Both the position numbers and the translations under genes were made by a program. Below the pieces are notes generated by a model, which did no database searches, was not told the origin of the DNA, and saw only the letters and a program-made list of their open reading frames with translations. Of a stretch of DNA of 64,000 bases, positions 411 through 62,858 are shown piece by piece. The stretch covers positions 5,066 through 69,065 of the forward strand of contig JAFGLI010000019.1 in assembly GCA_016928115.1 (NCBI GenBank). The letters are read 5' to 3'. Each line of letters begins with the position of its first letter. The first letter of the stretch is position 1. The stretch comes from Candidatus Woesearchaeota archaeon (GTDB lineage Archaea > Nanobdellota > Nanobdellia > Woesearchaeales > UBA9642).

Positions 411-3400
411 ATGGGTTTTTCATTAAAGCCTGTTTTAACAGGAAAACATTTAAAAACCAAAACTGTTTTTTATTTCCTTATGGTAGATTTCAGAAAGACA
501 GAAAAAAAATGGCAGGATAAATGGGATAAGAAGAAATTATTTCAGGTTAAGAAAGACAAAAACAAAAAAAAGTACTATGTTCTCGTAATGTTCCCCTACC
601 CATCAGGCTCCGGACTGCACATGGGTCATGCATTTAATTATATTGTGGGAGACATAATAGCAAGATACAAAAAAATGCAGGGCTTTAATGTTCTGCATCC
701 TATGGGATATGACTCTTTAGGGTTACCTGCAGAAAATGCAGCCATTAAGCAAAAAGAGCATCCGGGGAAATACTCAGAAAAGGCTATTAAAAATTTTATG
801 GACCAGCAGAAATCCTTAGGTATAAGCTATGACTGGTCAAGAACTGTTGAGACTCATTCTCCTGAATACTATAAATGGGACCAGTGGATTTTCCTCAAGA
901 TGCTTGAAAAAGGCCTTGCTTATCAGAAAGAGTCTTCAGTAAACTGGTGCCCTGAATGCAAAACAGTATTGGCAAATGAGCAGGTTCATGACGGAAAATG
1001 CTGGAGGCATGAAGACACAAATGTTGAGATAAAACAACTAAAGCAATGGTTCTTAAGGATAACTGATTATGCTGATGAATTATATGAAAGTATTGACTCA
1101 TTGAAAGGGTGGCCTGAAAGGACAAAAGCAATGCAGAAGAACTGGATTGGAAAAAGCCACGGAACTGAGATTGATTTTGAGATTGAAAATCCAAATAAGA
1201 AAAAAGAAATTAGTAATGTTGTAATTATTCATGGTTCTCCTCATAGTAAAAAACGAGCAAAAGAAGAACCTCAAAATAAGGCTCATTGGATTTCATGGTT
1301 GAAAAAAGAATTAGAAAAACAAGAGATAAAAGTATACAATCCTTTAATGCCTAATTGTTGGAAACCAAAATATGAAGAATGGAAAAAAGAATTTGAAAAA
1401 ATTAACATTAATGAAGATAGTGTTTTAATTGGACATAGTGCAGGAGGAGCTTTTGTGGTTAGATGGTTAAAGGAAACCGGGAAAAAAATTAATAAATTAA
1501 TTTTAATATCTGCAGGGAAAACAACAACTAAGGAAAATAAAAGATTGCATAAATTTTACAGTTTTAATATTGGTGATAAAATCAAAAATAATGTGAAGGA
1601 AACTATTATTTTTATCTCAGATGACGAACCAGATTATAGGAAGAAAAATGCCATAGAATATGAAAAAAAATTAAATGGAAAATTAATCAGTTTGAAAAAC
1701 AGAGGACATTTCACTCTAAAAGGAATGAAAACAAAAGAATTCCCAGAACTTCTTGATGAAATTATTTCAAAAACAAAATTCCCAATATTCACAACACGCC
1801 CCGATACAATCTATGGAGTAACATTTATGGTTATATCTGCACAGCATCCAAAACTTGTTGATTTGATTACAAAAGAGCAGGAAAAAGAAGTTAAAGAATT
1901 CCTTAAAAAGCTTAAATCAGTAAGTGAAAAGGAAATGGAGGATATGGAAAAGGAAGGCGTCTTTACAGGCTCGTTCGCTGTCAATCCAATGACAAATGAA
2001 AAGATTCCTGTTTATGCAGGAAATTTTGTCCTTGCTGATTATGGCTCAGGAATGGTTATGGCTGTGCCTGCCCATGACCAAAGGGATTTTGAATTCGCCA
2101 AAAAATACAATATTCCTGTAAAGATAGTAATACAGCCTGATGCCTATGACATAAATCCTGAAAAAATGTCAAGGGCTTATACTGGAAACGGCAGAATGGT
2201 AAATTCAGGGGAATTCAATAATCTACCTAATAATATTGCAATTGATGAAATCACCAAATACCTGATTAAGAAAAAATCAGGAAGAAAAACAATACAGTAT
2301 AAACTAAAAGACTGGTGCATATCAAGACAAAGATATTGGGGAACTCCCATACCAGTAATATACTGTGATAAATGCGGGATTGTTCCTGTAGCTGAAAAAG
2401 ACCTGCCTGTTAAGCTGCCTGAAAAAGTGAAATTCGGAAAAGGCAATCCTCTTGAAACAAATAAGGATTTTGTGAATGTAAAATGCCCCAGATGCAAAGG
2501 CAATGCAAAAAGGGAAACTGACACAATGGACACTTTTGTAAATTCATCATGGTATTTCTTAAGATACTGCGACCCTGAAAATAATAAAAAGATATTTGAT
2601 AAAGAAAAGGCAAAATACTGGATGCCTGTTGACCAATACATAGGCGGGGCAGAGCATGCATGCATGCACCTTATTTATTTCAGGTTTTACAACAAATTCC
2701 TGAGGGACATTGGCCTTGTTGATGTAGATGAGCCTGCAGTTAATCTGTTCCACCAGGGAATGCTTCATGGTCCGGATGGAAAGGTTATGTCCAAAAGCAG
2801 GGGCAATGTTGTGCTGCCGAAAGAGGTTTCTGAAAAATACGGCATAGATACAGCAAGATTGTTTCTTGTCTCAATAGGCTCTCCTGACAAAGACAGGGAA
2901 TGGAATGAAAAAGGAATCCGGAGCAGCCTTAAGTTCATTGAGAAAGTGTATGATTTTGTAAAAAAATTTAAAGAAAATAAGTCATCACCAATTATTGAAT
3001 CAAAGCTGCATAAAGCCATAAAGACTGTCAGCCAGGATATAGAGAATTTCAGGTATAATCTTGCTGTAATAAAGCTGAGGAAATTATTTGAGGGCATTTG
3101 CGATGAAAAAAACATTACTAAAAAAGACCTTGAAATCTTCCTGAAAATGCTTGCGCCTTTCTGCCCGCATATATGCGAGGAATTATGGGAAAAACTTGGC
3201 AATAAAGGATTTATTTCAGAAGCAAAATGGCCCGGATATGATGATAAGAAAATAAATGAAAAAGCCCTGTACTCTGAGGAGCTTGTTGATAATGTAAGGA
3301 AAGATATTCTTGAGATTATCGGGCTGATTGGAAAAGATGAGAAAGGCATCTCAGAAATTACAATCTATATTGCAGATGAATGGAAATACGGATTATATAA

Positions 3401-5333: not shown

Positions 5334-6131
5334 ATGAGAATAAAACTAAAATTTACAAAATCTCTGGAGGAAAACGCATCATATTATTTTGAAAAGTCTA
5401 AAAGGGCAAAACAGAAATTAGAGAAAACCAAGAAAGCAGTGAGGGATACAAAGAAAAAGCTGGAAAATGCAGAGAAGATTACGAGTGAAGAGATAAAAGA
5501 GGAAAAGAAGAAAAAGAAACTGAAGAAAGTCATAAAAAAGAAAAAATGGTACCAGAATTTCAGGTGGTTCATGTCATCAGACGGCTTTCTTGTTGTGGGT
5601 GGAAGGGATGCAACATCAAATGAGATTATTGTAAAGAAGCATGCATCCGGAAATGACATTGTATTTCATACACAAATGGCAGGAAGCCCTTTTGTTGTAA
5701 TAAAAAATCCTTTAAATAAAGACATTCCTGATTCCACAATACAGCAGGCTGCTGATTTCTGTGTAAGCTTCAGCAGGGCATTTGACGAGGGACTGCAGAC
5801 TTCAGAGGTCTATTATGTAAAGCCCGAGCAGCTTTCCAGGAAAACCAAAGCAGGAGAATATATGGGAAAAGGCGCATTCATGGTATACGGCAAGAGAAAC
5901 TACACAGAAGGGAGGCTTAATGTTGCTGTTGGAAATTACAATGGAACCACTATGTCCGGGCCTGTTGAGGCAGTTGAAAAACACTGCAAAAAATATGTCG
6001 TCCTTAAAAAAGGAAAAGAGAAAAAAAGCGAGCTTGCAAAGAAGATAAGGCATTTATTGGAATTAGATGACCTGGATGAAATAATAAGGTTTATACCAAA
6101 AGAGGCTGAGATTGAAGAAGTAAAAAAATAA
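5334..6131 (+). CDS. C-terminal half of an NFACT/Rqc2-FbpA family protein, with a coiled coil and the NFACT-R/DUF814 domain
   Basis: Lys/Glu-rich coiled coil, then 'WYQNFRWFMSSDGFLVVGGRDATSNEIIVKKHASGNDIVFHTQMAGSPFVV...EVYYVKPEQLSRKTKAGEYMGKGAFMVYGKRNY', typical of DUF814. Confidence 0.7.
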   Translation: MRIKLKFTKSLEENASYYFEKSKRAKQKLEKTKKAVRDTKKKLENAEKITSEEIKEEKKKKKLKKVIKKKKWYQNFRWFMSSDGFLVVGGRDATSNEIIVKKHASGNDIVFHTQMAGSPFVVIKNPLNKDIPDSTIQQAADFCVSFSRAFDEGLQTSEVYYVKPEQLSRKTKAGEYMGKGAFMVYGKRNYTEGRLNVAVGNYNGTTMSGPVEAVEKHCKKYVVLKKGKEKKSELAKKIRHLLELDDLDEIIRFIPKEAEIEEVKK

Positions 6132-6137
6132 AACCAA

Positions 6138-7583
6138 TCAGTTTCTTTTATATAATTTATAAGTTTCTGTTTTATATATTAATTTATTGCTTCTTATTAT
6201 CTCTAAAATCTTTTCTCTTTGCTCCGGACATTTTTCATCAACGGGATTACATTCTATAGAACTAAAAATTATATAATTATAATCTTTTTCTTCTAAAATA
6301 TCTTTCAGCCGCGGCATGCTATAATAATAAGCAATATACATTTTATTATCGATAAATACAGAAGGAAATGGGGTTGTTGTAATAACAGAGCCATTCAGGT
6401 TATTTTCTTTTAAGAAAGAATAAAAATCTTCATCCTTACCCGAAGTATTCAAAAGTTTAACAAGATTGTGTGTTGAGGAAAAAGGAATAATCAGAATGAT
6501 AATGAATATCAGAATTAAAGAAGCAGATAAAACATATTTATTCAGCCATTTCTGCCTTTTCAGAATATTAAAAATGCCATCAACCCCCAAACCTACAAAT
6601 AAGGCCATGAATGAAAAAAAAGCTAAACCATATCTTATTTCCTTATGTGAAGAAATACTGAAATATAAGGCAAATATCAGAAAAGCAAACAGAAAAACCA
6701 GTTTTTCTTTGTTTTTGTAATATTTTCTTCTAAAAAAGAAATATAAACCAGGCAATGAAAACCAAAATAAAGGATTCTGTAAAAAAATATTCTTAAAATA
6801 ATAAAGAAAACCTCCGGTATGAAAAAAACTCGTTATGTTTGATGTATAAATGCCCCCAAGTAAGGGCATGAATATTCTCTGAAAAAAGACCAAATCCTCT
6901 GATTCAAACATAAAATAAGAATATAAACACAAAACCACCACAGAAGAAATAAAAGGAATCCATATTTTTAATAGATTTAAAAGATTATCATTAAATTTTG
7001 TCTTATCTTTTATAATCTCTATGAAAAGCACAATGGTTAAAACCAATATAGACAAAGCAAAAGGAAATCTTGTTAAAAAAGCCAAGCCACAGAACACTCC
7101 TGCAAAAAAATATCTCTCTTTATTGAAAAAATAAAAACTAATAAATACCAACAACAAAGCAGGAAGTGTTGTAAAAATCCTAAAAGAATTAATAAAAAAA
7201 ACAGGCGTAATTATTAAAACAATAACTGCAATCAAAGAAATTGCTTTATTAAATACCTTCGCCCCAAAAAAATAAAGATAAAAAAGAAATAAAGAAGATA
7301 TAACTATAGATAAAATTCTTCCCATTATCAGGGGATCAAAAGATAATTTCCATAAAAAACCATTAATCAGAGACAATAATGGGGGTCTAAATGGCTCTAT
7401 GAATGCATTTCTGCCCAAGGAATAGAAATATTTCCCCATTGCAATATAAACTGCTTCATCCCAATAAATTTTTTGTCCTTTAAAAATTAGCAACTGAAAA
7501 ACAAAAAAAGCAAAGATAATAACAAGAATTAGAATTTTAGTTTCTTTAAAATTATTAAGAAAATCCTTTTTTTTAATATTCAT
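6138..7583 (-). CDS. GT-C fold glycosyltransferase, ArnT/PMT (GT39/83)-like polytopic membrane protein
   Basis: Multiple TM helices. The first extracytoplasmic loop 'IYWDEAVYIAMGKYFYSLGRNAFIEPFRPPLLSL' matches the ArnT-family DE..Y......KPPL motif. A C-terminal soluble domain is present. Confidence 0.6.
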   Translation of the reverse strand: MNIKKKDFLNNFKETKILILVIIFAFFVFQLLIFKGQKIYWDEAVYIAMGKYFYSLGRNAFIEPFRPPLLSLINGFLWKLSFDPLIMGRILSIVISSLFLFYLYFFGAKVFNKAISLIAVIVLIITPVFFINSFRIFTTLPALLLVFISFYFFNKERYFFAGVFCGLAFLTRFPFALSILVLTIVLFIEIIKDKTKFNDNLLNLLKIWIPFISSVVVLCLYSYFMFESEDLVFFQRIFMPLLGGIYTSNITSFFHTGGFLYYFKNIFLQNPLFWFSLPGLYFFFRRKYYKNKEKLVFLFAFLIFALYFSISSHKEIRYGLAFFSFMALFVGLGVDGIFNILKRQKWLNKYVLSASLILIFIIILIIPFSSTHNLVKLLNTSGKDEDFYSFLKENNLNGSVITTTPFPSVFIDNKMYIAYYYSMPRLKDILEEKDYNYIIFSSIECNPVDEKCPEQREKILEIIRSNKLIYKTETYKLYKRN

Positions 7584-8284: not shown

Positions 8285-9525
8285 TTCTGAACCCTCCTGA
8301 ATATCAAATCAAAAAACACGCCTACCCAGATAAATCCCATAAGAAGATAATAAAACAGGAAATATGTAAACAAGCTGAAAACCCCTTTCCTGAACATCCT
8401 CTCATTTGCATTCCTGATTGAGTTTACAAAAAATATCAGGCTCATCATAATCATAGTCATTATTGTTATCAAAGCCATATAATCAAGGTCAAGAATACTG
8501 AAGTTCAGGCTGAAATTGTATATGAAAGTCATGAAATCAAAATCCACAGAGGCAAAATTAAAAAGGTTGCTCACTAAAGGCGGGATTATTCTATTAATCA
8601 TCAGAAATAAAAGTATGATAACAATAACTCCGGATAATATTATTGAAGGCATCTGCAGCATGCCAAAATTTCCGTATTCCTTCCTGAAAAGCATTCTCCT
8701 GTAATTTATAACATTCAGTGTAGAGCCCTTGAACCATCGGTTTCTCTGTTTTACCACGCCCCGTATGTCCTTTGGCGCTATTGTATAAACTTCAGTATCA
8801 TAAGTCTGCACAACCCTGTACTTGTGCTTGTGCATCCTGAAAACAATCTCAAGGTCCTCTGTAAGGTTGTTCTCATCAAAACCACCTAATTTTTCAAGAA
8901 TGGATTTCCTGTATATTGAAAAAGGACCCGGAGCAACATGAATACAGTTTAATGCATTCATAAGTTTTTTATAGAACATGTTTATCAGGTACTCATACCA
9001 TTGTATCTTCTGTATATTTGATTCTGCTTTTTTTATCTTCATCAGAGGCAGAACAGCCGCCATATTCCTGTCAGCATAAAAATAAGGAAGCATCTTTTTC
9101 AGGGCATCTTTTCTTACAAAAGAATCAGCATCCAGACACACAAAAAAATCTCCTCTTGACTCTTTTAACCCCAGATTGAGGGCCTTTCCCTTTCCGCCGT
9201 TCTTTTTGCTTATGAGCCTCAGGGGCTGTTCTGGATTGTCCTTTATTATTCTTTTTACTATATTTTTAGTATGGTCTGTAGAGCCGTCATTTACAACCAT
9301 TATCTCCATTTTATCTTTCGGATAATCCAGGTCAAACAAAGACATTATGCTGCCTTTTATTGAGTCTTCCTCATTATATGCGGGAAGGACTACAGAAACA
9401 AAAGGATAGTTTTTTATGGGCTTTTTTTCAGGATAATGCTTGTTTTCAAAAATGACCATAATCCAGAATACTCCAAGATACAAAGAGATGAAATACACTG
9501 TCCAAAATAATATATTAAGTATCAT
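8278..9525 (-). CDS. Processive family-2 glycosyltransferase (PgaC/NodC/cellulose-synthase-like) with flanking TM helices
   Basis: 'VVLPAYNEEDSI', 'MVVNDGSTD', 'CLDADS' (DxD) and 'QRNRWFKG' (the QxxRW motif of processive beta-glycosyltransferases); N- and C-terminal TM segments. Confidence 0.8.
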   Translation of the reverse strand: MILNILFWTVYFISLYLGVFWIMVIFENKHYPEKKPIKNYPFVSVVLPAYNEEDSIKGSIMSLFDLDYPKDKMEIMVVNDGSTDHTKNIVKRIIKDNPEQPLRLISKKNGGKGKALNLGLKESRGDFFVCLDADSFVRKDALKKMLPYFYADRNMAAVLPLMKIKKAESNIQKIQWYEYLINMFYKKLMNALNCIHVAPGPFSIYRKSILEKLGGFDENNLTEDLEIVFRMHKHKYRVVQTYDTEVYTIAPKDIRGVVKQRNRWFKGSTLNVINYRRMLFRKEYGNFGMLQMPSIILSGVIVIILLFLMINRIIPPLVSNLFNFASVDFDFMTFIYNFSLNFSILDLDYMALITIMTMIMMSLIFFVNSIRNANERMFRKGVFSLFTYFLFYYLLMGFIWVGVFFDLIFRRVQKW

Positions 9526-10925: not shown

Positions 10926-12418
10926 CTGTATTCATAAATCTCTATCATGGGCTCCCCAATATTTGACCCATATAGCAAATCAAAACATAAAGGGTCATCT
11001 TTTGTATAGACTATATCTTTTATATTAAATTCATCTTTTATTGAATCTGATAGATATATATAATCAACCCCGTAATAATTGAGCTTCTCTGCTGCCGGGC
11101 TCTCTAATCTTGATGCGTATATTATCCTTATGTCCTGCAGCCTCGTACTTACGTCGTTTATGAGCAGAAAGTTGTTATCTGCAATATTCTTAGTGTTGGA
11201 ATAATAGTTAAGTATATATCCCTTGTCTGCTGTTATGAGGGTTGTTTCTGACGGGTTTGAATGCTCTTTCAGCCATATAAAGGAATCAACCTCGCTTTCT
11301 GTGGGTGTCTTTTTCAGGGAGTCCCGGGCTGCCTTGACTGAGCTGAAACCTGATGAAAGCAGGAATATGCTTACAAAGAATATCAGGAGGAACCTGTATA
11401 TGAATGAAATCTTTGTCTTATGAAAATAAAGGTAAAATGTCTTCAGTGTGAATGATGATGCAATAACCATCAGTAATGATAATATTAATAATCCTGTCTT
11501 TAATTCTATTAATGTGAAGAAAAGAAGGACAAATATCAAGGAAGAGATTGCGGTTATAAGGAAAACAATCTTGTTTTTTCTTTCATGGAACGCAAAATAC
11601 ATCGCCAATACGCCCAGTATTAAGGGGAGTATGCCTATATATGCAAACATCTGCGGGAAACTGAGATTTATGAAATATTCCCTCAGAACAGTCTGGGGAA
11701 GGTTCTTCCATATAACCCTTATGCCGTGGTTCACAAGCGCGTTTTTGTATATCAGGAGGTTTGCCCAGACTGAAAGGAACAATGCAAAAAGAACCCACTC
11801 AATCCTCCCCGTCCTTACCTGCTTCTGCTCTATCCTGCATATTGCAACGTATATTAAAAGACCCAATACCAAAATAAAGACTAAAGGTGAAGAGAAAACT
11901 AACAGAATGAGTAAGAATATTGACCAGTTAAGGTGGTTTTTGTTTTCAAGGTTTAAAAATAAGAGTAAAATTATGAATGTGATGATTATTGAAAAATAGT
12001 CTGTTGTGAGTGTGTTTATGTCAAGAAACCAGACAGGTATGAACACGGATAGGAAAGATGTGACTAATGAAATCTCCTTGTTTTTTGTGATTTTATGTGA
12101 AAAAAAGTAGATTATGAATATTATAGATGAAGCTAAAATATTGGGGATGAGTTTGACTGCTATTGTAATGGGCATAAAAAGGCTGAAGAATGCAAGGAAA
12201 TAATAATATGCCGGAGTGAATAAGAAAGTTCTTCCCTGGTATGATAAAGGGTCATTGAACAAAGGCATTCCTGTCTTGGATATATGTTCGATTTGTCTTA
12301 GGGCAAAATAAGCATCATAGTCCATGTATTGTGTTTGGAAAGCAAAGAATAATCTTAAAGATAAAACTACAAAGAAAAATACCCATAACCACACCCATGG
12401 CTTTTTTATACTTCTCAT
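10913..12418 (-). CDS. GT-C fold glycosyltransferase-like polytopic membrane protein (STT3/ArnT superfamily, N-terminal DxD loop)
   Basis: N-terminal loop 'YMDYDAYFALRQIEHISKTGMPLFNDPLSYQGRTF' resembles the STT3/AglB/ArnT first periplasmic loop (DxD...R...DP.SY.GR). Many TM helices, C-terminal soluble domain. No WWDYG motif was seen, so I do not call it AglB. Confidence 0.45.
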   Translation of the reverse strand: MRSIKKPWVWLWVFFFVVLSLRLFFAFQTQYMDYDAYFALRQIEHISKTGMPLFNDPLSYQGRTFLFTPAYYYFLAFFSLFMPITIAVKLIPNILASSIIFIIYFFSHKITKNKEISLVTSFLSVFIPVWFLDINTLTTDYFSIIITFIILLLFLNLENKNHLNWSIFLLILLVFSSPLVFILVLGLLIYVAICRIEQKQVRTGRIEWVLFALFLSVWANLLIYKNALVNHGIRVIWKNLPQTVLREYFINLSFPQMFAYIGILPLILGVLAMYFAFHERKNKIVFLITAISSLIFVLLFFTLIELKTGLLILSLLMVIASSFTLKTFYLYFHKTKISFIYRFLLIFFVSIFLLSSGFSSVKAARDSLKKTPTESEVDSFIWLKEHSNPSETTLITADKGYILNYYSNTKNIADNNFLLINDVSTRLQDIRIIYASRLESPAAEKLNYYGVDYIYLSDSIKDEFNIKDIVYTKDDPLCFDLLYGSNIGEPMIEIYEYRCGK

Positions 12419-22172: not shown

Positions 22173-22799
22173 CTAATTCTTTAAGCTATCCTCACTTAAA
22201 CCCCTGCCAACTGCTTTTGAGATTATCTTAAAATATTCTTCTCCGCCATGTAAAATAAGATTGTTCCTTGCTGTCTCTTTGCCGTAATTCTCTTCATTAT
22301 TCAGCAGCATTTCCAGAAACTCTTTTTGCTTAAAAACATAAATGTGTATAAACGGAATGCTAATTTCACACTTATGCCTCAATTCAGAGTATATTCTTTT
22401 TTTATTAAAAGAATCATCACATACAATAACCAAGTCAAGGTCTGATTTTTTAGTCTCTTTTCCCTTAACATAGCTTCCTGTAACCAAAGCAATAAAAAAC
22501 TCAGTAGGCATTTTCAGAAAAACATCCTCAATCTCATCAAAAGGAATATTCTTTCTTGAAAAAGCAATATGCTCTGCAATAAACCCAAGATAAGCAAAAC
22601 TCTTAACATTAAACTTTAACCAATACTGAAAAACATTCCCTATTTTGTTCCTTCTCAAAATACCTTTATCCAAGAGCCTCTTTATCCTGCTGTAAACATA
22701 ACTTCTTGAGCTATATCCTTTCATAATGTCCTGAAAGCCAAAACCTTTCCAGGGCTCTTCAATAAAACATTTCAGTAATTTATATTCTTGCTTTAGCAT
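22173..22799 (-). CDS. Nucleotidyltransferase (MNT-type, Pol-beta superfamily) with an N-terminal wHTH
   Basis: 'GSYVKGKETKKSDLDLVIVCDD' is a GS...D.D nucleotidyltransferase motif; the N-terminal 'SRSYVYSRIKRLLDKGIL' is wHTH-like. Confidence 0.6.
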   Translation of the reverse strand: MLKQEYKLLKCFIEEPWKGFGFQDIMKGYSSRSYVYSRIKRLLDKGILRRNKIGNVFQYWLKFNVKSFAYLGFIAEHIAFSRKNIPFDEIEDVFLKMPTEFFIALVTGSYVKGKETKKSDLDLVIVCDDSFNKKRIYSELRHKCEISIPFIHIYVFKQKEFLEMLLNNEENYGKETARNNLILHGGEEYFKIISKAVGRGLSEDSLKN

Positions 22800-22846: not shown

Positions 22847-23320
22847 TTAAATCTTTCTATTTACTTTAAAAATATTAGAAACAAATGTTCTGGCATTTTT
22901 AAGAGAATCTTCTGCAGGCTTCTTATTTGCCTGAGGAATGGTCTTATAAGTAAAGTGCCCTCTTTTCCATTTTTCTTTTTTGAAAATTTCCAGCAGCTCA
23001 TCAGCCCTTAATATTAATTTATTGTAAATATTTAACAATCCTAAATCGAGCTCTCCACTATCAACAAGAAATTTCTTAAAATTCTCATATGTTTTTCTGT
23101 GAATTTCGGGAGCCTTTGTTTCTATTCCTTTATTCAGAAGAATAGATTTGGCAGCATAAAAAATAGCATAATAAGAATGGGAAATAACTGAACTGTAAAA
23201 TGTTGTATTCTCAGGGATATTAAATACCTCTTTATAGTTTTCACTTAATTTTTTCAAACATTCTGCAGTTATAATCTCATTATCTGCCCTGTCCAGATAA
23301 ATTCTTGCTTTTGGTTTCAT
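22847..23320 (-). CDS. HEPN-domain protein, partner of the MNT
   Basis: 'ISHSYYAIFYAAKSILLNKGIETKAPEIHRKTYENF' fits the HEPN fold signature (hayyA..ha.kAlL...g......H); the gene is immediately upstream of the MNT gene. Confidence 0.5.
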   Translation of the reverse strand: MKPKARIYLDRADNEIITAECLKKLSENYKEVFNIPENTTFYSSVISHSYYAIFYAAKSILLNKGIETKAPEIHRKTYENFKKFLVDSGELDLGLLNIYNKLILRADELLEIFKKEKWKRGHFTYKTIPQANKKPAEDSLKNARTFVSNIFKVNRKI

Positions 23321-38429: not shown

Positions 38430-38525
38430 TTGAATTATAATAAATTAAACAGGAAAATCTAAATATACCAGCCATATTTATCTATTCTGAAAAAATAACC
38501 ATAATTTACGAAAACTAAAAGTTTT

Positions 38526-38612
38526 CTAAGTTAGGAAATTCACCTGGAATTTCCGTAACTTAGTAAAACCAAAGGTTTTTCAAGTTCGAAAATGTCCCAT
38601 TTTCGTAACTTT
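38526..38612. repeat. Two bulged-hairpin repeat elements (locus A of a family shared with 48.4-48.57 kb)
   Basis: ctaagttaggaaattc-acctg-gaatttccgtaacttag (38526-38563) and aagttcgaaaat-gtccc-attttcgtaactt (38582-38611); each stem carries a single-base bulge. Confidence 0.55.
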
Positions 38613-38653
38613 TATAAATCTCTTAAAAATACCAAAAAATAGGGTGATGTCAA

Positions 38654-39346: not shown

Positions 39347-39387
39347 ATCCTGATTTTTAAATCAGGATATGATATAAAGGGGTAATT

Positions 39388-41676
39388 ATGATAGATAATA
39401 AAAAAACTTTAAATCTGAAAGTTGCAGAAGCTGTCCAGGATGATGTAAATAAAGGAATAGTCAGGATAGACAGAAACTTTATGAAGAAGATAGAAGCAGA
39501 TCCCGGCGACATAGTTGAACTGGAAGGAAAAAAGAAAACCGTCGCTATTGTGGACAGGGCTTATCCGGGCGACATCGGGCTTGAGATAATAAGAATGGAC
39601 GGGCTTATAAGAAGAAATACAGGCTCATCAATAGGAGAAAGAGTTAGAGTAAGGAAAACCGAAGTAAAAGAGGCAAAAAAAGTTGTCATTGCACCCACAA
39701 GAGAGGGTGTAATGATAAAGGCCAGTTCAACATTTCTTAAGCAGGGACTTTTGGGAAGGGCTGTCTCCCAGGGAGACATTGTTTCATGGGGAGGAACCAA
39801 AAGCAGGAGGACAACAACAAGCCAGAACCCTTTCTTTGAGGATGTATTCAGCATGCTTGACAACACATTATTTGACTTCGGCTTGGGAGACATCAAGTTC
39901 ATAGTGGCGAAAACAATGCCTAATGAGCCGGTTATAATAACTGAAACAACAGAAGTAGAGTTTATATCAGAGCCAATAAAAGAGATTGAAAAAGGGGCAA
40001 TACCTGAAGTCACTTATGAGGATATTGGTGGTTTGGATGAGGAAATAAAAAAAATAAGGGAGATGGTGGAATTACCTTTAAAACACCCAGAACTTTTTGA
40101 AAGACTGGGTATTGAGCCGCCAAAAGGGGTTTTACTTCATGGTCCTCCGGGAACAGGAAAAACCTTATTGGCAAAAGCTGTAGCCAATGAATCAGATGCT
40201 CATTTCATATTAATCAATGGTCCTGAAATTATGTCCAAATACTACGGACAAAGCGAGGAAAACCTCAGAAAGAAATTCGAGGAAGCGCAGAAAAACGCTC
40301 CTTCCATCATATTTATAGATGAGATTGATGCTATTGCAGGAAAAAGAGAGGAAACCAAAGGTGAGGTTGAGAGAAGGGTTGTTGCACAATTGCTGACAAT
40401 GATGGACGGCCTGGAATCAAGGGGAAAAGTTGTTGTCATAGGGGCAACAAATATCCCAAATTCACTGGACCCTGCCCTGAGAAGGCCCGGAAGGTTTGAC
40501 AGGGAAATCTCAATAAGGGTCCCAAGGGAAAATGACCGGGAGAATATCCTTAAAATCCATACCAGAAATATGCCTCTTGACAAAGACATAAACCTGAAAA
40601 AAATCTCAAGGATAACACACGGCTTTGTTGGAGCTGATTTATCTGCACTGGCAAAAGAGTCTGCAATGATAGTGTTAAGAAGAATATTCCCGGATATTGA
40701 GCTGAGCAAGGAAGAGGCACTTTCAGAGGAAACGCTGAAGAAATTAAAGGTTACGATGAAAGACTTTATGGATGCCTTAAAGAGCATCACACCTTCGGCA
40801 ATGAGAGAAGTAACTATTGAAAGCCCCAATGTGCATTGGGATGAAGTGGGGGGATTAAAGGAAGTTAAAGAAGAACTTGAGGAGACACTTGAATGGCCAT
40901 TGAAAAGAAGAAAGGCTTTTGAAAGATTAAATGTCAAGCCGCCAAAAGGCGTATTGCTTTATGGTGCTCCGGGAACAGGAAAAACCTTATTGGCAAAAGC
41001 CGTAGCTACAGAAACAGAAGCTAATTTCATACTGATAAAAGGCCCTGAGTTGTTAAGCAAGTGGGTTGGAGAAAGTGAAAGGGCTGTAAGAAAAATCTTT
41101 GAAAAAGCAAGGCAGTCTTCACCATGTATAATCTGCTTTGATGAAATTGATGCAATTGCACCAAGAAGGGGTGTATCTGCAGACAGCCATGCTACTGAAA
41201 GAGTAATAAACCAATTGTTGACTGAAATGGACGGGCTGCAGCCTTTGAACGAGGTCATGATTGTTGCAACAACAAACAGGCCTGATATTATAGACCCTGC
41301 ATTTTTGAGACCTGGAAGGTTTGATAGGATTATCCATACAGGGGTTCCTGACAAAAAGGCAAGAAAGGCTATTTTTGAAGTACATACAAAAAACATGCCC
41401 CTGGCTAAGGATGTTGATTTAGATAAATTGGCTGAAAAAACAGAGAACTATGTGGGCGCAGACATTGAGGCAATATGCAGGGAAGCAGCAATCTTTGCCT
41501 TGAGGGAAGATATAAAAACCAAAAATATCAAACTAAAACATTTCCAGGAAGCCATGAAAAAAGTAAGGCCTTCAGTAACAAAAGAGATAGAAGAGTCCTA
41601 CAAAAGGATAAAAGACCATTTCACACAGGCCAAGGCAAAGGAAATGAAGGAAAAGATGCCTAATTATTTTGGATGA
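39388..41676 (+). CDS. cdc48: CDC48/VCP-like AAA+ ATPase (N-domain plus tandem D1/D2 AAA modules)
   Basis: Two Walker A motifs ('[15 protein letters not shown]' twice), Walker B 'IIFIDEIDA' and 'IICFDEIDA', SRH regions, and an N-terminal double-psi barrel region. Confidence 0.9.
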
Positions 41677-47144: not shown

Positions 47145-47399
47145 TCATAAATCTCTGTAAACGTTCTTTCTATGTCTAATTAATGTAACTTCAATCATTT
47201 GTTTGTCTTTATTTATATCTGCTATAACTCTGTAATCTCCAACTCTTAATCTGTAGTCTTTTCTTCCTTTTAGTTTTTTAAAGAAATGAAATGGTTTTTT
47301 CTTTGTCGAGATAATCTTTTCAAAAATTCTTTTCTTCTTTTCATGTGGTAATTTATTTAATTCTTCAATTGCTTTTTCATCAAAAATTATCTCATACAT
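47145..47399 (-). CDS. RelE/ParE family toxin
   Basis: 'KGRKDYRLRVGDYRVIADINKDKQMIEVTLIRHRKNVY' is the canonical RelE/ParE C-terminus. Confidence 0.8.
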   Translation of the reverse strand: MYEIIFDEKAIEELNKLPHEKKKRIFEKIISTKKKPFHFFKKLKGRKDYRLRVGDYRVIADINKDKQMIEVTLIRHRKNVYRDL

Positions 47400-47407
47400 A
47401 TAAACAC

Positions 47408-47644
47408 CTATAAACCCAATCTTTCTTTGGCTTCTTTTTCAGTAAGAAAATTACCTCTTTTTATTCTCTCTCTTGCTTTTTCTATGGCTTCAACTGTTTC
47501 TTTACTAAGTTTAGGGTTTTCTTTCATATTTTCAGCTATGAATATTACCTTCTTCAAAACCTCGTCATAACTTTCATTTTTATATTCCCTAAACTTATCT
47601 AGCTGGTTTTTTGTATCATCATGTAGCTTTATTGTTGTAGTCAT
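47408..47644 (-). CDS. Cognate antitoxin
   Basis: 78 aa; 'TIKLHDDTKNQLDKFREYKNESYDEVLKKVI' is antitoxin-like (a ribbon-helix/VapB-type family); 8-nt gap to the toxin gene. Confidence 0.6.
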   Translation of the reverse strand: MTTTIKLHDDTKNQLDKFREYKNESYDEVLKKVIFIAENMKENPKLSKETVEAIEKARERIKRGNFLTEKEAKERLGL

Positions 47645-47765
47645 ATTATCACCCAGTATACCTAAGTATACTAAAGTATATAAACCTTTCTAAATTAATA
47701 AAAAATATAATCCAATATAAATACTAACAAAGAAAAATTGAAAATCTTACAAAAATATAAGAAAA

Positions 47766-48365
47766 CTACTCAGACATGAAATCCTCAACAGTATAATCAA
47801 ACTTCTGTATCTTCTGCTTCAAGCCTTTTTTCTCAAGATAAGTTTTAGCTAATAACCAGAAAAACAAAGCCAATGACTTCCTTCCCTTATTATTGCAGGG
47901 CATTACAAGGTCTATATCATTGGACTTATTGTTGCTGTCGCAAAGTGCAATCAGGGGAATCCCTATTTTCTCAGCATCCTCAACAGCATTTTTATCAGGC
48001 CATGGGTCTGTAACCATCAGCAGCCTGGCTTCCCTGTAAATATCAAGATTAGGATTGGTTAATAATCCAGGAGGGTATCTTCCTGTATATACCTTTATTC
48101 CAGTAATCTCGCCAAATAATTTAACAGCCTTCCATGAGCTTTCCCTTCTTGAGAATATTAAAACTGATTCAGGCTCATATTGGGATAAAAGATTAACCAC
48201 AGACCTTATTCTCTTGTCTATCTGCTGGACATTCAGAACAGATAACCCATCAGGCCTTGTCTGGAAAATAAACTTCTCCATATGTTTAGTCTTGAATTTA
48301 GTCCCTATATGTATCCCTGACTTAAGATATTCATCTTTGGGTATTAATAATTCCTTTTCTTTCAT
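47766..48365 (-). CDS. rps2: 30S ribosomal protein uS2 (archaeal/eukaryal type)
   Basis: 'LLIPKDEYLKSGIHIGTKFKTKHMEKFIFQTRPDGLSVLNVQ' and 'IALCDSNN...VMPCNNKGRKSLALFFWLLA' match archaeal S2/SA. Confidence 0.85.
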   Translation of the reverse strand: MKEKELLIPKDEYLKSGIHIGTKFKTKHMEKFIFQTRPDGLSVLNVQQIDKRIRSVVNLLSQYEPESVLIFSRRESSWKAVKLFGEITGIKVYTGRYPPGLLTNPNLDIYREARLLMVTDPWPDKNAVEDAEKIGIPLIALCDSNNKSNDIDLVMPCNNKGRKSLALFFWLLAKTYLEKKGLKQKIQKFDYTVEDFMSE

Positions 48366-48401
48366 ATAAATAGGGAAAAATGAAGTATTTAAAAAGGTTA
48401 T

Positions 48402-48566
48402 GGAATTTGGATGCCAAATTCCAAACTTAGAAAATATTCTATTTTCGTAAGTTACGAAAATTTATTGTAAATAAATTTTCTAACTTAGGAAACGCTCTGT
48501 GTTTCCGTAAGTTACGAAATTACCGAGTAATTTCTAACTTGAAAAACGTTCCGTTTTACTAAGTTA
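48402..48566. repeat. A perfect 9-bp inverted repeat (ggaatttgg-atg-ccaaattcc) followed by three bulged-hairpin repeat elements (locus B; same family as 38.5 kb)
   Basis: aacttagaaaat-attct-attttcgtaagtt (48424-48453), taacttaggaaa-cgctctgtg-tttccgtaagtta (48481-48514), taacttgaaaaacg-ttc-cgttttactaagtta (48535-48566). Confidence 0.55.
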
Positions 48567-48656
48567 TGGAATTTTCTCTTTATAATTTGATATTTTTTTA
48601 ATTACATATACTATTAAATAGTAACATTTAAATAAAAAACAGATATTCTTTCTCAT

Positions 48657-49184
48657 ATGAATAATTTAGAAGAGATTCTGGATGATGTAGTTATAAACGG
48701 CTTTCCTGAATTTATGGATGAAGATATCTGGATAGAATATAAATCAATTAAAAAAAGTCTTCTTAAATCAGGAGAATTAACAGACGAAGGTTTTTATATT
48801 GAAGTTGATAATTTATTAAAAGATACCTCTGCTAATGTGATAATGGGTGGGGTGGCTCATGAACTTGCCCATTTAGTAACAGAAAGGAACTTAAGCAAAT
48901 ATTCTTCCAAAAAAGATGGACTTCATTATAAAAGATCAAAAAGATATAAAACTCTTGACGAAAGAGATACTGATTTAAGAGCAATTCTAAGGGGTTATGG
49001 TCCACATCTGTTAGAGTTTATGAAATATTCTAAAGAAAAAGGATTCCCTTATTATAAAAAAGACGGCCTTTCTATAAACGAAATTAAGACTTTATTAAAA
49101 ATTAAACCCCATAAGAATTTATTTTCACCATTTATCCTACTTTACAGAAAATTACGAACAAAAAATAAATCTTTTATTATTTAA
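48657..49184 (+). CDS. Putative Zn-dependent metallopeptidase (HExxH)
   Basis: 'MGGVAHELAHLVTERN' holds the only convincing motif, an HExxH. Confidence 0.4.
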   Translation: MNNLEEILDDVVINGFPEFMDEDIWIEYKSIKKSLLKSGELTDEGFYIEVDNLLKDTSANVIMGGVAHELAHLVTERNLSKYSSKKDGLHYKRSKRYKTLDERDTDLRAILRGYGPHLLEFMKYSKEKGFPYYKKDGLSINEIKTLLKIKPHKNLFSPFILLYRKLRTKNKSFII

Positions 49185-62707: not shown

Positions 62708-62780
62708 GGCGGTAGTAGTTCAATGGTCAGAATAGAAGACTGTGGATCTTCAGAAGCGGGTCCGATTCCCGTCTACCGCC
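62708..62780 (+). tRNA. tRNA-His (anticodon GTG) with a genomically encoded G-1 and discriminator C73; no encoded CCA
   Basis: Folded by hand: 7-bp acceptor (ggcggtag.../...ctaccgc), the extra 5' G pairing with C73, D-arm with G18G19, anticodon stem gaaga/tcttc with loop cTGTGga, 4-nt variable loop, T-arm gcggg/cccgt. Confidence 0.8.
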
Positions 62781-62788
62781 TTTTTTAT
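62781..62788 (+). terminator. Oligo-T tract directly after tRNA-His
   Basis: ttttttat immediately 3' of the tRNA; archaeal Pol III/Pol II terminate at T-runs. Confidence 0.4.
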
Positions 62789-62858
62789 AATAAGGGCTTG
62801 ACGAACGAAGTGAGGAAACCCTTGGTTTTTACGAGATTTTTCTCAAAAATCTCTGCAT

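Follow-up and report, generated by a model that had tools for sequence, protein, structure and literature searches.

What is the run of hairpins upstream of the ribosomal protein gene rps2 in a Woesearchaeota genome, and does it belong to that gene? The locus lies in a stretch of 64,000 nucleotides (the window, GC content ~32%) from contig JAFGLI010000019.1 of Candidatus Woesearchaeota archaeon, an uncultured member of DPANN. An initial annotation had described here the second locus of a hairpin element family, made up of three bulged hairpins and a separate perfect 9-bp palindrome in the rps2 promoter region, and suggested that it could coordinate ribosomal protein expression. The hairpins turn out to belong to a dispersed, lineage-specific palindromic repeat family that exists at the level of the DNA and ends in a promoter. 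The array at rps2 is not an rps2 leader RNA, a CRISPR array or a replication origin. On balance we favour, with modest confidence, an explanation in which the locus represents a single copy of a promoter-carrying dispersed DNA repeat, specific to the lineage and similar to the bacterial interspersed mosaic elements (BIMEs).

A chain of hairpin units upstream of rps2

A single type of unit accounts for the bulged hairpins, for the short hairpins that separate them and for the 9-bp palindrome. Six of these units and a half unit form a gap-free chain from 48394 to 48575 (Table 1), with the consensus 5'-TAASTTA, G-RAAA(n), a loop of 3-5 nt, (n)TTTY-C, a bulged G and TAASTTA-3'. A unit measures 32-40 nt, starts with the bases TAASTTA, has a GC content of 15-38% and consists of an outer stem of 6-7 bp, one bulged base and an inner stem of 6-11 bp. 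Neighbouring units lie on alternating strands and have a 7-bp TAASTTA junction in common. Since the units alternate, the two forms of the junction alternate too: a long form, which is a perfect 19-bp palindrome (TTTTCG-TAAGTTA-CGAAAA), and a short form, TTTYC-TAASTTA-GRAAA. The distance from junction to junction is 25-33 bp, so there is no helical phasing.

The three bulged hairpins (48424-48453, 48481-48514 and 48535-48566) fold as originally claimed, each with a single bulged base on its 3' side. They are real but do not complete the set, the short hairpins between them being the same unit on the other strand. The palindrome, ggaatttgg-atg-ccaaattcc at 48402-48422, is also present as described and extends to 10 of 10 bp (TGGAATTTGG/CCAAATTCCA, 48401-48423), but it is not a separate element, as it forms the inner stem of the first unit, E0. 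The 3' end of E0, CCATAACC on the minus strand, runs directly into the TATA box predicted for rps2, which supports the assignment of the palindrome to the rps2 promoter region more strongly than the initial annotation could show. A half-site said to be common to the palindrome and a unit at 38.5 kb did not hold up: the sequence is GGAATTT here and GGAAATT there, two variants of the inner-stem consensus G-RAAW. The last full unit, E5, has a paralog at 38556-38587, in the array at 38.5 kb (array A), from which it differs by a C-G to G-C flip. Within the half unit, GTTATGGAATTT is a direct repeat of 48397-48408.

Taken alone, the 9-bp palindrome is within chance for 64 kb of AT-rich DNA, as the window holds five perfect hairpins of at least 9 bp against 3.2 ± 1.5 in simulated sequence. 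The cluster is beyond chance. Five perfect hairpins of at least 7 bp occur within 220 nt, where 0.32 are expected, and the unit pattern matches five times in the window, both strands counted, against an expectation of 0.00. We built a covariance model, R1, from 23 distinct units. It finds ten units in the window, in strict plus-minus alternation and all at 38502-38612 and 48394-48566, which confirms this site as the second locus of its family; everything else scores 17 bits or less. Matches to R1 alternate likewise in the related loci L001, L053, L057, L059, L070, L079, L086 and L102.

Conservation of the hairpin stems

The hairpin constraint is real. Perfect inner stems of 6-11 bp with loops of 3-5 nt are present in 21 of the 23 distinct units, and 68 pairs form beyond the five consensus pairs, compared with 15.7 ± 4.4 after shuffling (maximum 39 in 5000 shuffles). 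In a MAFFT alignment 90% of the cells are paired, and slid registers are all much worse. Changes on both sides of a pair affect 19 alignment cells against 7.9 in shuffled alignments, a value reached by none of 500 shuffles. Orthologous stems differ by compensated changes alone. The ortholog of array A in L086 carries two compensated base-pair changes; in its second unit GGAAATTC/GAATTTCC in the window corresponds to GAAAATCC/GGATTTTC. The stem of E0 reads GGAATTTGG/CCAAATTCC in the window and GGAATTTTTT/AAAAAATTCC in L001 and L059, again with compensation, and the terminal unit of array D (L057), compared with E0, has the stem GGAATTTTTTT/AAAAAAATTCC. Loops vary freely, as in E2, where gta in the window is cac in L001 with all 22 stem bases kept. 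Read in the orientation of the unit, the loops contain 75% pyrimidines by hand count, a weak hint that the unit has an intrinsic polarity.

Both strands of the region fold far better than shuffled sequence, whether as RNA (z = -7.8 for the plus strand, z = -6.9 for the minus strand) or as DNA (-42.5 kcal/mol, z = -8.7, and -41.7 kcal/mol, z = -9.8, respectively). G.T wobbles make up only 2 of the 169 stem pairs. Because wobbles are nearly absent and the two strands fold equally, the constraint looks like palindromy of the DNA and not like the structure of a one-stranded RNA.

Six promoter-fused arrays in a narrow lineage

Arrays of four to six units were seen at six loci (Table 1) in the ~110 kb of the lineage that was covered, at a density of about one per 30 kb. 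Each of the six independent loci has its terminal unit in the sense orientation of the gene, with the 3' end of the unit running into the TATA box. The consensus of this fusion is ...TTTYC-(G/A)-TAAC(C/T)T followed by TTTWTAAA, examples being ...AAATTCC(A/G)TAACC followed by TTTTTAAA and ...TTTCGTAACTT followed by TTATAAAT. Among 104 loci the exact fusion pattern YCRTAACYTTTWTAAA occurs only at array loci and in a remnant in L047, described below; within the window it is confined to arrays A and B, array B being the one at rps2. The final unit of array A runs into a TATA-like TTTTATAAAT (38610-38619) in front of ORF84-ORF137-CDC48. Across the window, boxes similar to TTTATAAA or TTTAAATA precede the ATG of most genes, with their centres ~26 nt away from it, which suggests that the mRNAs of the window are mostly leaderless. 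The same position of the predicted rps2 box implies, as far as promoter prediction goes, a leaderless rps2 mRNA.

How widely is the family distributed? The relatives of this rps2 are all metagenome-assembled genomes (MAGs) of Woesearchaeota or Nanoarchaeota. We compared 46 genome loci around rps2, including 45 more distant Woesearchaeota loci (~700 kb). The comparison of upstream regions proposed by the initial annotation showed an array in the close relative L001 (S2 protein 95% identical, array 92% identical), which was the only one of the 46 with the family, and none in the 45 more distant loci, either at rps2 or elsewhere. The protein database holds one further close relative, P0001/L047, with an S2 that is 93% identical; the next matches are at most 68% identical. 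A metagenome-wide pattern scan returned 48 stretches, in which the true arrays came only from three Joint Genome Institute (JGI) samples and the others were single chance matches. L102 comes from the same MAG as L001. Arrays are present in two MAGs, three JGI samples and two Logan runs, and given these seven independent assemblies a chimeric assembly artefact is unlikely. The Logan contigs L101 (1-80) and L104 (1-63), from SRR13394437 and SRR9710702, begin inside arrays B and C, as expected if repeated units break the assembly graph.

The covariance-model scan of the window and the loci found no solitary units. Phages and plasmids gave no blastn match to the family, and a pattern scan of viral contigs gave only two single chance matches. 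At the gathering threshold Rfam 15 matched only tRNA-His in the window, which was also the only ARAGORN prediction (62.7 kb); below threshold, the best scores at the two array loci of the window were 23 and 15 bits against gathering scores of 100-119. In the literature that we searched, no comparable family is described for archaea, and nothing similar for DPANN.

Table 1. Units, genes and array loci. Positions refer to the window unless a locus number is given; bit scores are for the covariance model R1.
Feature	Position	Strand	Description
E0	48394-48429	-	Covariance-model match (31.3 bits) and fold; inner stem is the palindrome 48401-48423
E1	48423-48454	+	43.1 bits; AAACTTA GAAAATA ttc TATTTTC G TAAGTTA; first bulged hairpin
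E2	48448-48487	-	43.7 bits; on the plus strand a perfect 11-bp hairpin at 48456-48480
E3	48481-48514	+	Covariance-model match and fold; second bulged hairpin
E4	48508-48541	-	On the plus strand an 8-bp hairpin at 48516-48534
E5	48535-48566	+	35.1 bits; third hairpin; variant TAACTT GAAAAACG ... CGTTTTAC TAAGTTA
Terminal half unit TAAGTTATGGAATTTT	48560-48575	+	
Predicted rps2 TATA box TTTTTAAATA	48386-48395	-	Centre ~26 nt before the ATG at 48365; read from the sequence
rps2 (ribosomal protein uS2)	47766-48365	-	Pfam Ribosomal_S2; served by the array's terminal unit
ORF175	48657-49184	+	175-aa HExxH protein, divergent from rps2
Locus A	38502-38612; L086		Serves ORF84-ORF137-CDC48
Array A, unit 1	38502-38533	-	Covariance-model match
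Array A, unit 2	38527-38562	+	Covariance-model match
Array A, unit 3	38556-38587	-	Covariance-model match
Array A, unit 4	38581-38612	+	Covariance-model match
Locus B	Window; L001; L059		Serves rps2
Locus C	L053; L070; L102 8477-8591		Serves oapA-oapB-oapC
Locus D	L057		Serves rps19e
Locus E	L079		Serves sec61beta; a tyrosine recombinase gene ends ~50 nt away on the other side
Locus F	L102 10090-10202		Serves a Zn-ribbon ORF, then aEF-1beta

Probable copying and loss

A module of ~46-50 nt, made up of a terminal unit plus TATA box, can be aligned between the sequences upstream of rps2, the Zn-ribbon gene, rps19e and oapA. Its form TAAGTTTGGAATTTGG-nnn-CCAAATTCCATAACCTTTTTAAATACT stands upstream of both rps2 in the window and the Zn-ribbon gene in L102, and the two modules are near-identical over ~46 nt. 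Single units also recur. The 34-nt E3 is identical to an inverted unit in array C (L053 221-254), E4 equals a unit of array F (L102 10115-10148) except for one loop base, and in L001 and L059 the position of E4 holds a copy of E2 instead. Identical units that depart from the consensus in the same way at different loci point to copying of the repeat and not to operator sites that evolved independently.

An rps2 promoter with almost no array is found in L047. Its homology with the window ends at 48403 (...AAAAAGGTTATGG) and resumes at 49178, the stop codon of ligT; the intervening 774 bp, which contain the array and ORF175, are replaced by 111 nt of unrelated DNA. L047 keeps CCATAACC, the 3' tip of E0, together with the TATA box, and lacks the rest of the array. 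On the simplest reading this would be a deletion with one end inside E0.

Proposed role and relation to known repeats

We propose that the family lives and spreads as DNA, its units being copied or gene-converted, in the manner of bacterial repetitive extragenic palindromic (REP) and BIME clusters and of "mobile promoters". The terminal module would supply or shape the promoter of the downstream gene, and the upstream units may act in cis on the promoter to which they are fused. The array could be read by a factor that recognises either the extruded hairpin or the conserved palindrome at the junction, TTTYC(G)-TAASTTA-(C)GRAAA; alternatively, the units may form cruciforms and take up negative supercoiling. 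A gene for gyrase A is present in the window. We consider that any effect of the array on the promoter would be modulatory and not essential. A bolder version of this proposal, which we regard as unlikely, is that a chain of extrudable hairpins at the transcription factor B recognition element (BRE) and TATA box forms a new archaeal upstream control element. Read by a structure-specific factor or through supercoiling, such an element would couple the promoters of rps2, rps19e, the aEF-1beta operon, sec61beta, oapABC and CDC48, and would replace the structured rps2 leader of more distant relatives (see below).

The closest known systems are REPs and BIMEs, the latter being REPs in alternating orientation, and REPINs (PMC2817692). 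Like these, the units are short (20-40 nt), imperfect, bulged stem-loop palindromes that lie outside genes in regularly spaced clusters of alternating orientation and can form hairpins on either strand; their stems are kept through compensated changes, and they are common to many loci of one genome (PMC2817692). There are clear differences. The units here are AT-rich and overlap by the 7-bp junction, where BIMEs have linkers; solitary units were not seen; the arrays are found before genes, joined to the TATA box, whereas REPs lie at 3' ends; and the host is an archaeon (DPANN) in whose scanned window ORFs no REP-associated tyrosine (RAYT/Y1) transposase was found. The family is not a member of REP proper. 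REPs and BIMEs are further characterised by more than 100 copies per genome and an associated RAYT transposase; six array loci were seen in the ~110 kb of the lineage covered here. Pneumococcal BOX elements are likewise intergenic and modular: the number of their internal modules varies, they have predicted stable stem-loops, lie near promoters and affect neighbouring genes. Their modules follow in direct order, A-Bn-C, and not in alternating inversion, and there is no sequence relationship.

The promoter end of the arrays has its own precedent in putative mobile promoters and promoter-bearing miniature inverted-repeat transposable elements (MITEs), in which homologous promoter DNA stands before non-homologous genes within a lineage (PMC3488235). 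The definition of a putative mobile promoter (~50-100 nt, at least 80% identical, before non-homologous coding sequences) applies to the modules described here, across two close genomes. Unlike mobile promoters and MITEs such as Neisseria CREE and Yersinia ERIC, the promoter here, of the archaeal BRE/TATA kind, is not one conserved block but the end of an array of variable length, and terminal inverted repeats and target-site duplications are missing.

Several observations weigh against our preferred explanation, that of a dispersed repeat carrying a promoter. The promoter kept in L047 shows that the array is not needed for the rps2 promoter to persist. The junction spacing varies without helical phasing, which speaks against a cooperative protein array on duplex DNA. 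The units lack the GT(A/G)G or CGTC head and the GC-rich stem by which REPs are defined (PMC2817692, PMC3733652). No cognate protein was found either: neither a Y1/HUH transposase nor any recombinase is encoded by the scanned ORFs of the 64-kb window, and only the array in L079 has a tyrosine recombinase gene beside it. The compensated changes, finally, could come from gene conversion between the arms instead of selection.

The L079 gene (702-1505; Pfam Phage_integrase) encodes a protein of 267 aa and ends ~50 nt from array E. No homolog of it was found in the window or beside other arrays, and its position is probably coincidental. With its inverted arms and 7-bp asymmetric core, the junction is superficially like the core site of a recombinase.

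Does the array coordinate ribosomal protein expression, as first suggested? The support is associative. The sole ribosomal protein gene among the ~80 ORFs of the window has an array, and three of the four loci found by DNA pattern alone precede rps19e, sec61beta and the Zn-ribbon gene followed by aEF-1beta. This enrichment in translation and secretion genes rests on six loci and is suggestive. Counting against such coordination are the arrays at oapABC and at ORF84-ORF137-CDC48, and the rps2 promoter without an array in L047.

Alternative explanations

Could the array be an operator? Its junction palindromes (17-19 bp, TTTYC(G)TAASTTA(C)GRAAA) would then bind a dimeric transcription factor or an Orc1/Cdc6-like winged-helix regulator that co-regulates genes of translation and secretion. 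The arrays stand directly upstream of the BRE and TATA box, which is where archaeal activators and repressors act, and the genes served are rich in translation apparatus (rps2, rps19e, the aEF-1beta operon and sec61beta). The junction as a perfect 9-1-9 palindrome matches three times where 0.06 matches are expected. Its TTTC...GAAA dyads resemble those of origin recognition boxes (ORBs), mini-ORBs (mORBs) and an Orc1-bound promoter motif, for example Sulfolobus mORB GATTTTCAGATGAAACG and C3 GAAACGTAGGAAATTTAC (PMC3089459); in contrast to ORBs, the arrays have the core TAASTTA, are found at many loci, do not lie beside orc1/cdc6 and lack an unwinding element. An operator array nevertheless seems improbable to us. 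The TTTC and GAAA arms are spaced in two alternating registers, with sites 25-33 bp apart, and the sequence between the sites is self-complementary up to a 3-nt loop and co-varies, which a dimer binding duplex DNA does not require. The identical non-consensus units speak for copying and not for convergent evolution of sites, and L047 does without the array.

The arrays may instead be purely selfish or neutral REP/BIME-like repeats, moved by an enzyme specific for hairpins, their adjacency to the TATA box reflecting target preference and no role in expression. Clusters of imperfect palindromes in alternation are the defining layout of BIMEs (PMC2817692), units have been exchanged between loci, close relatives differ in the presence of the array, and assemblies break at arrays. 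Against this, all six loci have the same polarity and an exact TATA fusion, and the common module runs through the TATA box. With no solitary units, no transposase seen, and true REPs residing mostly at gene 3' ends, we consider this explanation doubtful.

Action at the level of RNA appears quite unlikely. Transcribed hairpins might stabilise a 3' untranslated region, terminate transcription or insulate the next promoter from read-through, or form a small RNA. The strong RNA fold of the region (the plus-strand value given above) is in keeping with this, and so is the short distance at which arrays A, C, E and F follow a co-directional gene (75, 0, ~50 and ~20 nt, respectively). Array B, however, lies between two divergent core promoters whose mRNAs both look leaderless, and with alternating strands only half of the units would be sense in any transcript. 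The rarity of wobbles and the equal folding of both strands also argue against an RNA, and there is no Rfam match (best 23 bits against a gathering score of 119).

A replication origin, or cluster of ORBs bound by Orc1/Cdc6, is very improbable: the inverted repeats are rich in TTTC/GAAA, and the operon of the GTPase oapA, a neighbour of oriC1 in haloarchaea (PMC4010727), follows array C, but the arrays number six or more and every one is joined to a promoter. Neither the window nor L102 contains orc1/cdc6, and an extended AT-rich unwinding region between opposed sites is missing. OapA, whose family name had hinted at an origin, is now linked to vesicle formation and not to replication (PMC10927574).

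We also rejected four further candidates. A CRISPR array has near-identical direct repeats with unique spacers; here direct copies are only ~70% alike, the "spacers" are units on the other strand, and Tandem Repeats Finder finds no array. An autoregulatory leader of a ribosomal protein, which belongs to the 5' untranslated region of its mRNA, does not fit an array upstream of the predicted TATA box, which is itself centred ~26 nt before the rps2 ATG. Integron attC sites are hairpins of 57-141 nt with R and L boxes and extrahelical bases, each of which separates a gene cassette, whereas the units here are 32-40 nt long and abut one another with no ORFs between. In a type III toxin-antitoxin system near-identical tandem repeats come immediately before the toxin gene and share its transcript; this was discounted since the units are 70% alike and ORF175 has homologs without arrays and a separate TATA box, which follows the array after 60 nt.

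Structured rps2 leaders in more distant relatives

In the window lineage rps2 appears to be leaderless, as it does in L018, L031 and L038. Between the TATA box and rps2, roughly 30 of the 45 more distant Woesearchaeota loci carry a structured leader that is 110-190 nt long and conserved. They include L003 (3214-3334), L011 (259-400), L020 (9812-10000), L022 (6191-6433), L024 (9791-10000), L028 (9812-10000), L029 (3526-3675), L033 (2018-2149) and ~20 others. Covariation links the 5' end of the leader (AUURCC) to the loop (GGYRAU) of a hairpin further downstream; the predicted 5' end, (U)AUUGCCC, pairs with GGGCGAUA(A), the loop of a CUGC...GCAG hairpin. This co-varying pairing (ATTACCC/GGGTGA, TTGCCC/GGGCAA) suggests a pseudoknot. 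The leader matches no Rfam family and is a candidate for a new uS2 autoregulatory leader.

Hairpin clusters may be a general feature of Woesearchaeota. L008 has its own intergenic clusters of adjacent perfect hairpins at 6424-6670, 11318-11460 and 2985-3057, with, for instance, CAAAAnnn...nnnTTTTG stems, and their sequences are unrelated. Similar unrelated clusters occur at L029 808-890, L030 16212-16284, L016 29-99, L033 1300-1353 and L043 873-891. One hairpin, CAGAAATC-nnn-GATTTCTG, recurs in L008 and L043, with a variant in L033.

Neighbouring genes and other features of the window

The divergent neighbour ORF175 has its own predicted TATA box at 48627-48634. Its earlier label as metallopeptidase-like is reasonable, given the HExxH motif and the weak resemblance of its AlphaFold model (pLDDT 81) to minimal zinc metallopeptidases such as selecase, abylysin, SPRTN and Ste24 in Foldseek (E 0.01-0.03). 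No Pfam, NCBIfam or PHROG match was found for it, and its family of ~150-aa proteins was seen only in Woesearchaeota (32 clusters). We discarded a functional link between ORF175 and the array, homologs being found in unrelated contexts without arrays. L001 has two tandem paralogs of ORF175 (8402-9364) that are 42-47% identical to the window copy; such divergence beside a conserved array and S2 implies that the ORF next to the array is fast-evolving or has been replaced.

Just downstream of rps2, on the minus strand, are genes for a ParE toxin (47145-47399) and a DUF7557/ribbon-helix-helix-like antitoxin (47408-47644). A 7-bp palindrome upstream of this pair, agtatac-CTAA-gtatact at 47655-47672, is probably its operator, and is conserved in L001 (10358-10375) with a different loop. 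A second pair, a nucleotidyltransferase gene (22173-22799, minus strand) adjoining a HEPN gene (22847-23320, minus strand), resembles a HEPN-MNT toxin-antitoxin pair.

Two other perfect 9-bp palindromes were noted in the window. One, atcctgatt-TTTA-aatcaggat at 39347-39368, lies between ORF137 and the CDC48 gene (39388-41676) and is unrelated to the unit family; the other, gagattttt-CTC-aaaaatctc at 62833-62853, lies ~50 nt downstream of tRNA-His (62708-62781). L102 carries a cluster of tRNA genes on both strands (5850-6660), in which an Rfam match spanning 102 nt (6274-6375) suggests an intron.

Implications

Most of what is documented on dispersed REP/BIME-type palindromes and on "mobile promoters" comes from bacteria. 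In this archaeal lineage, modules of a unit and a promoter are reused before unrelated genes, and a repeat is fused to the core promoters of essential genes. A practical consequence is that the arrays break assemblies of such genomes. If the arrays are only selfish, they are a clear archaeal case of hairpin repeats at the DNA level, and the question becomes which enzyme moves them. If they influence initiation, a streamlined archaeal genome would be able to rewire or coordinate expression with very little protein machinery.

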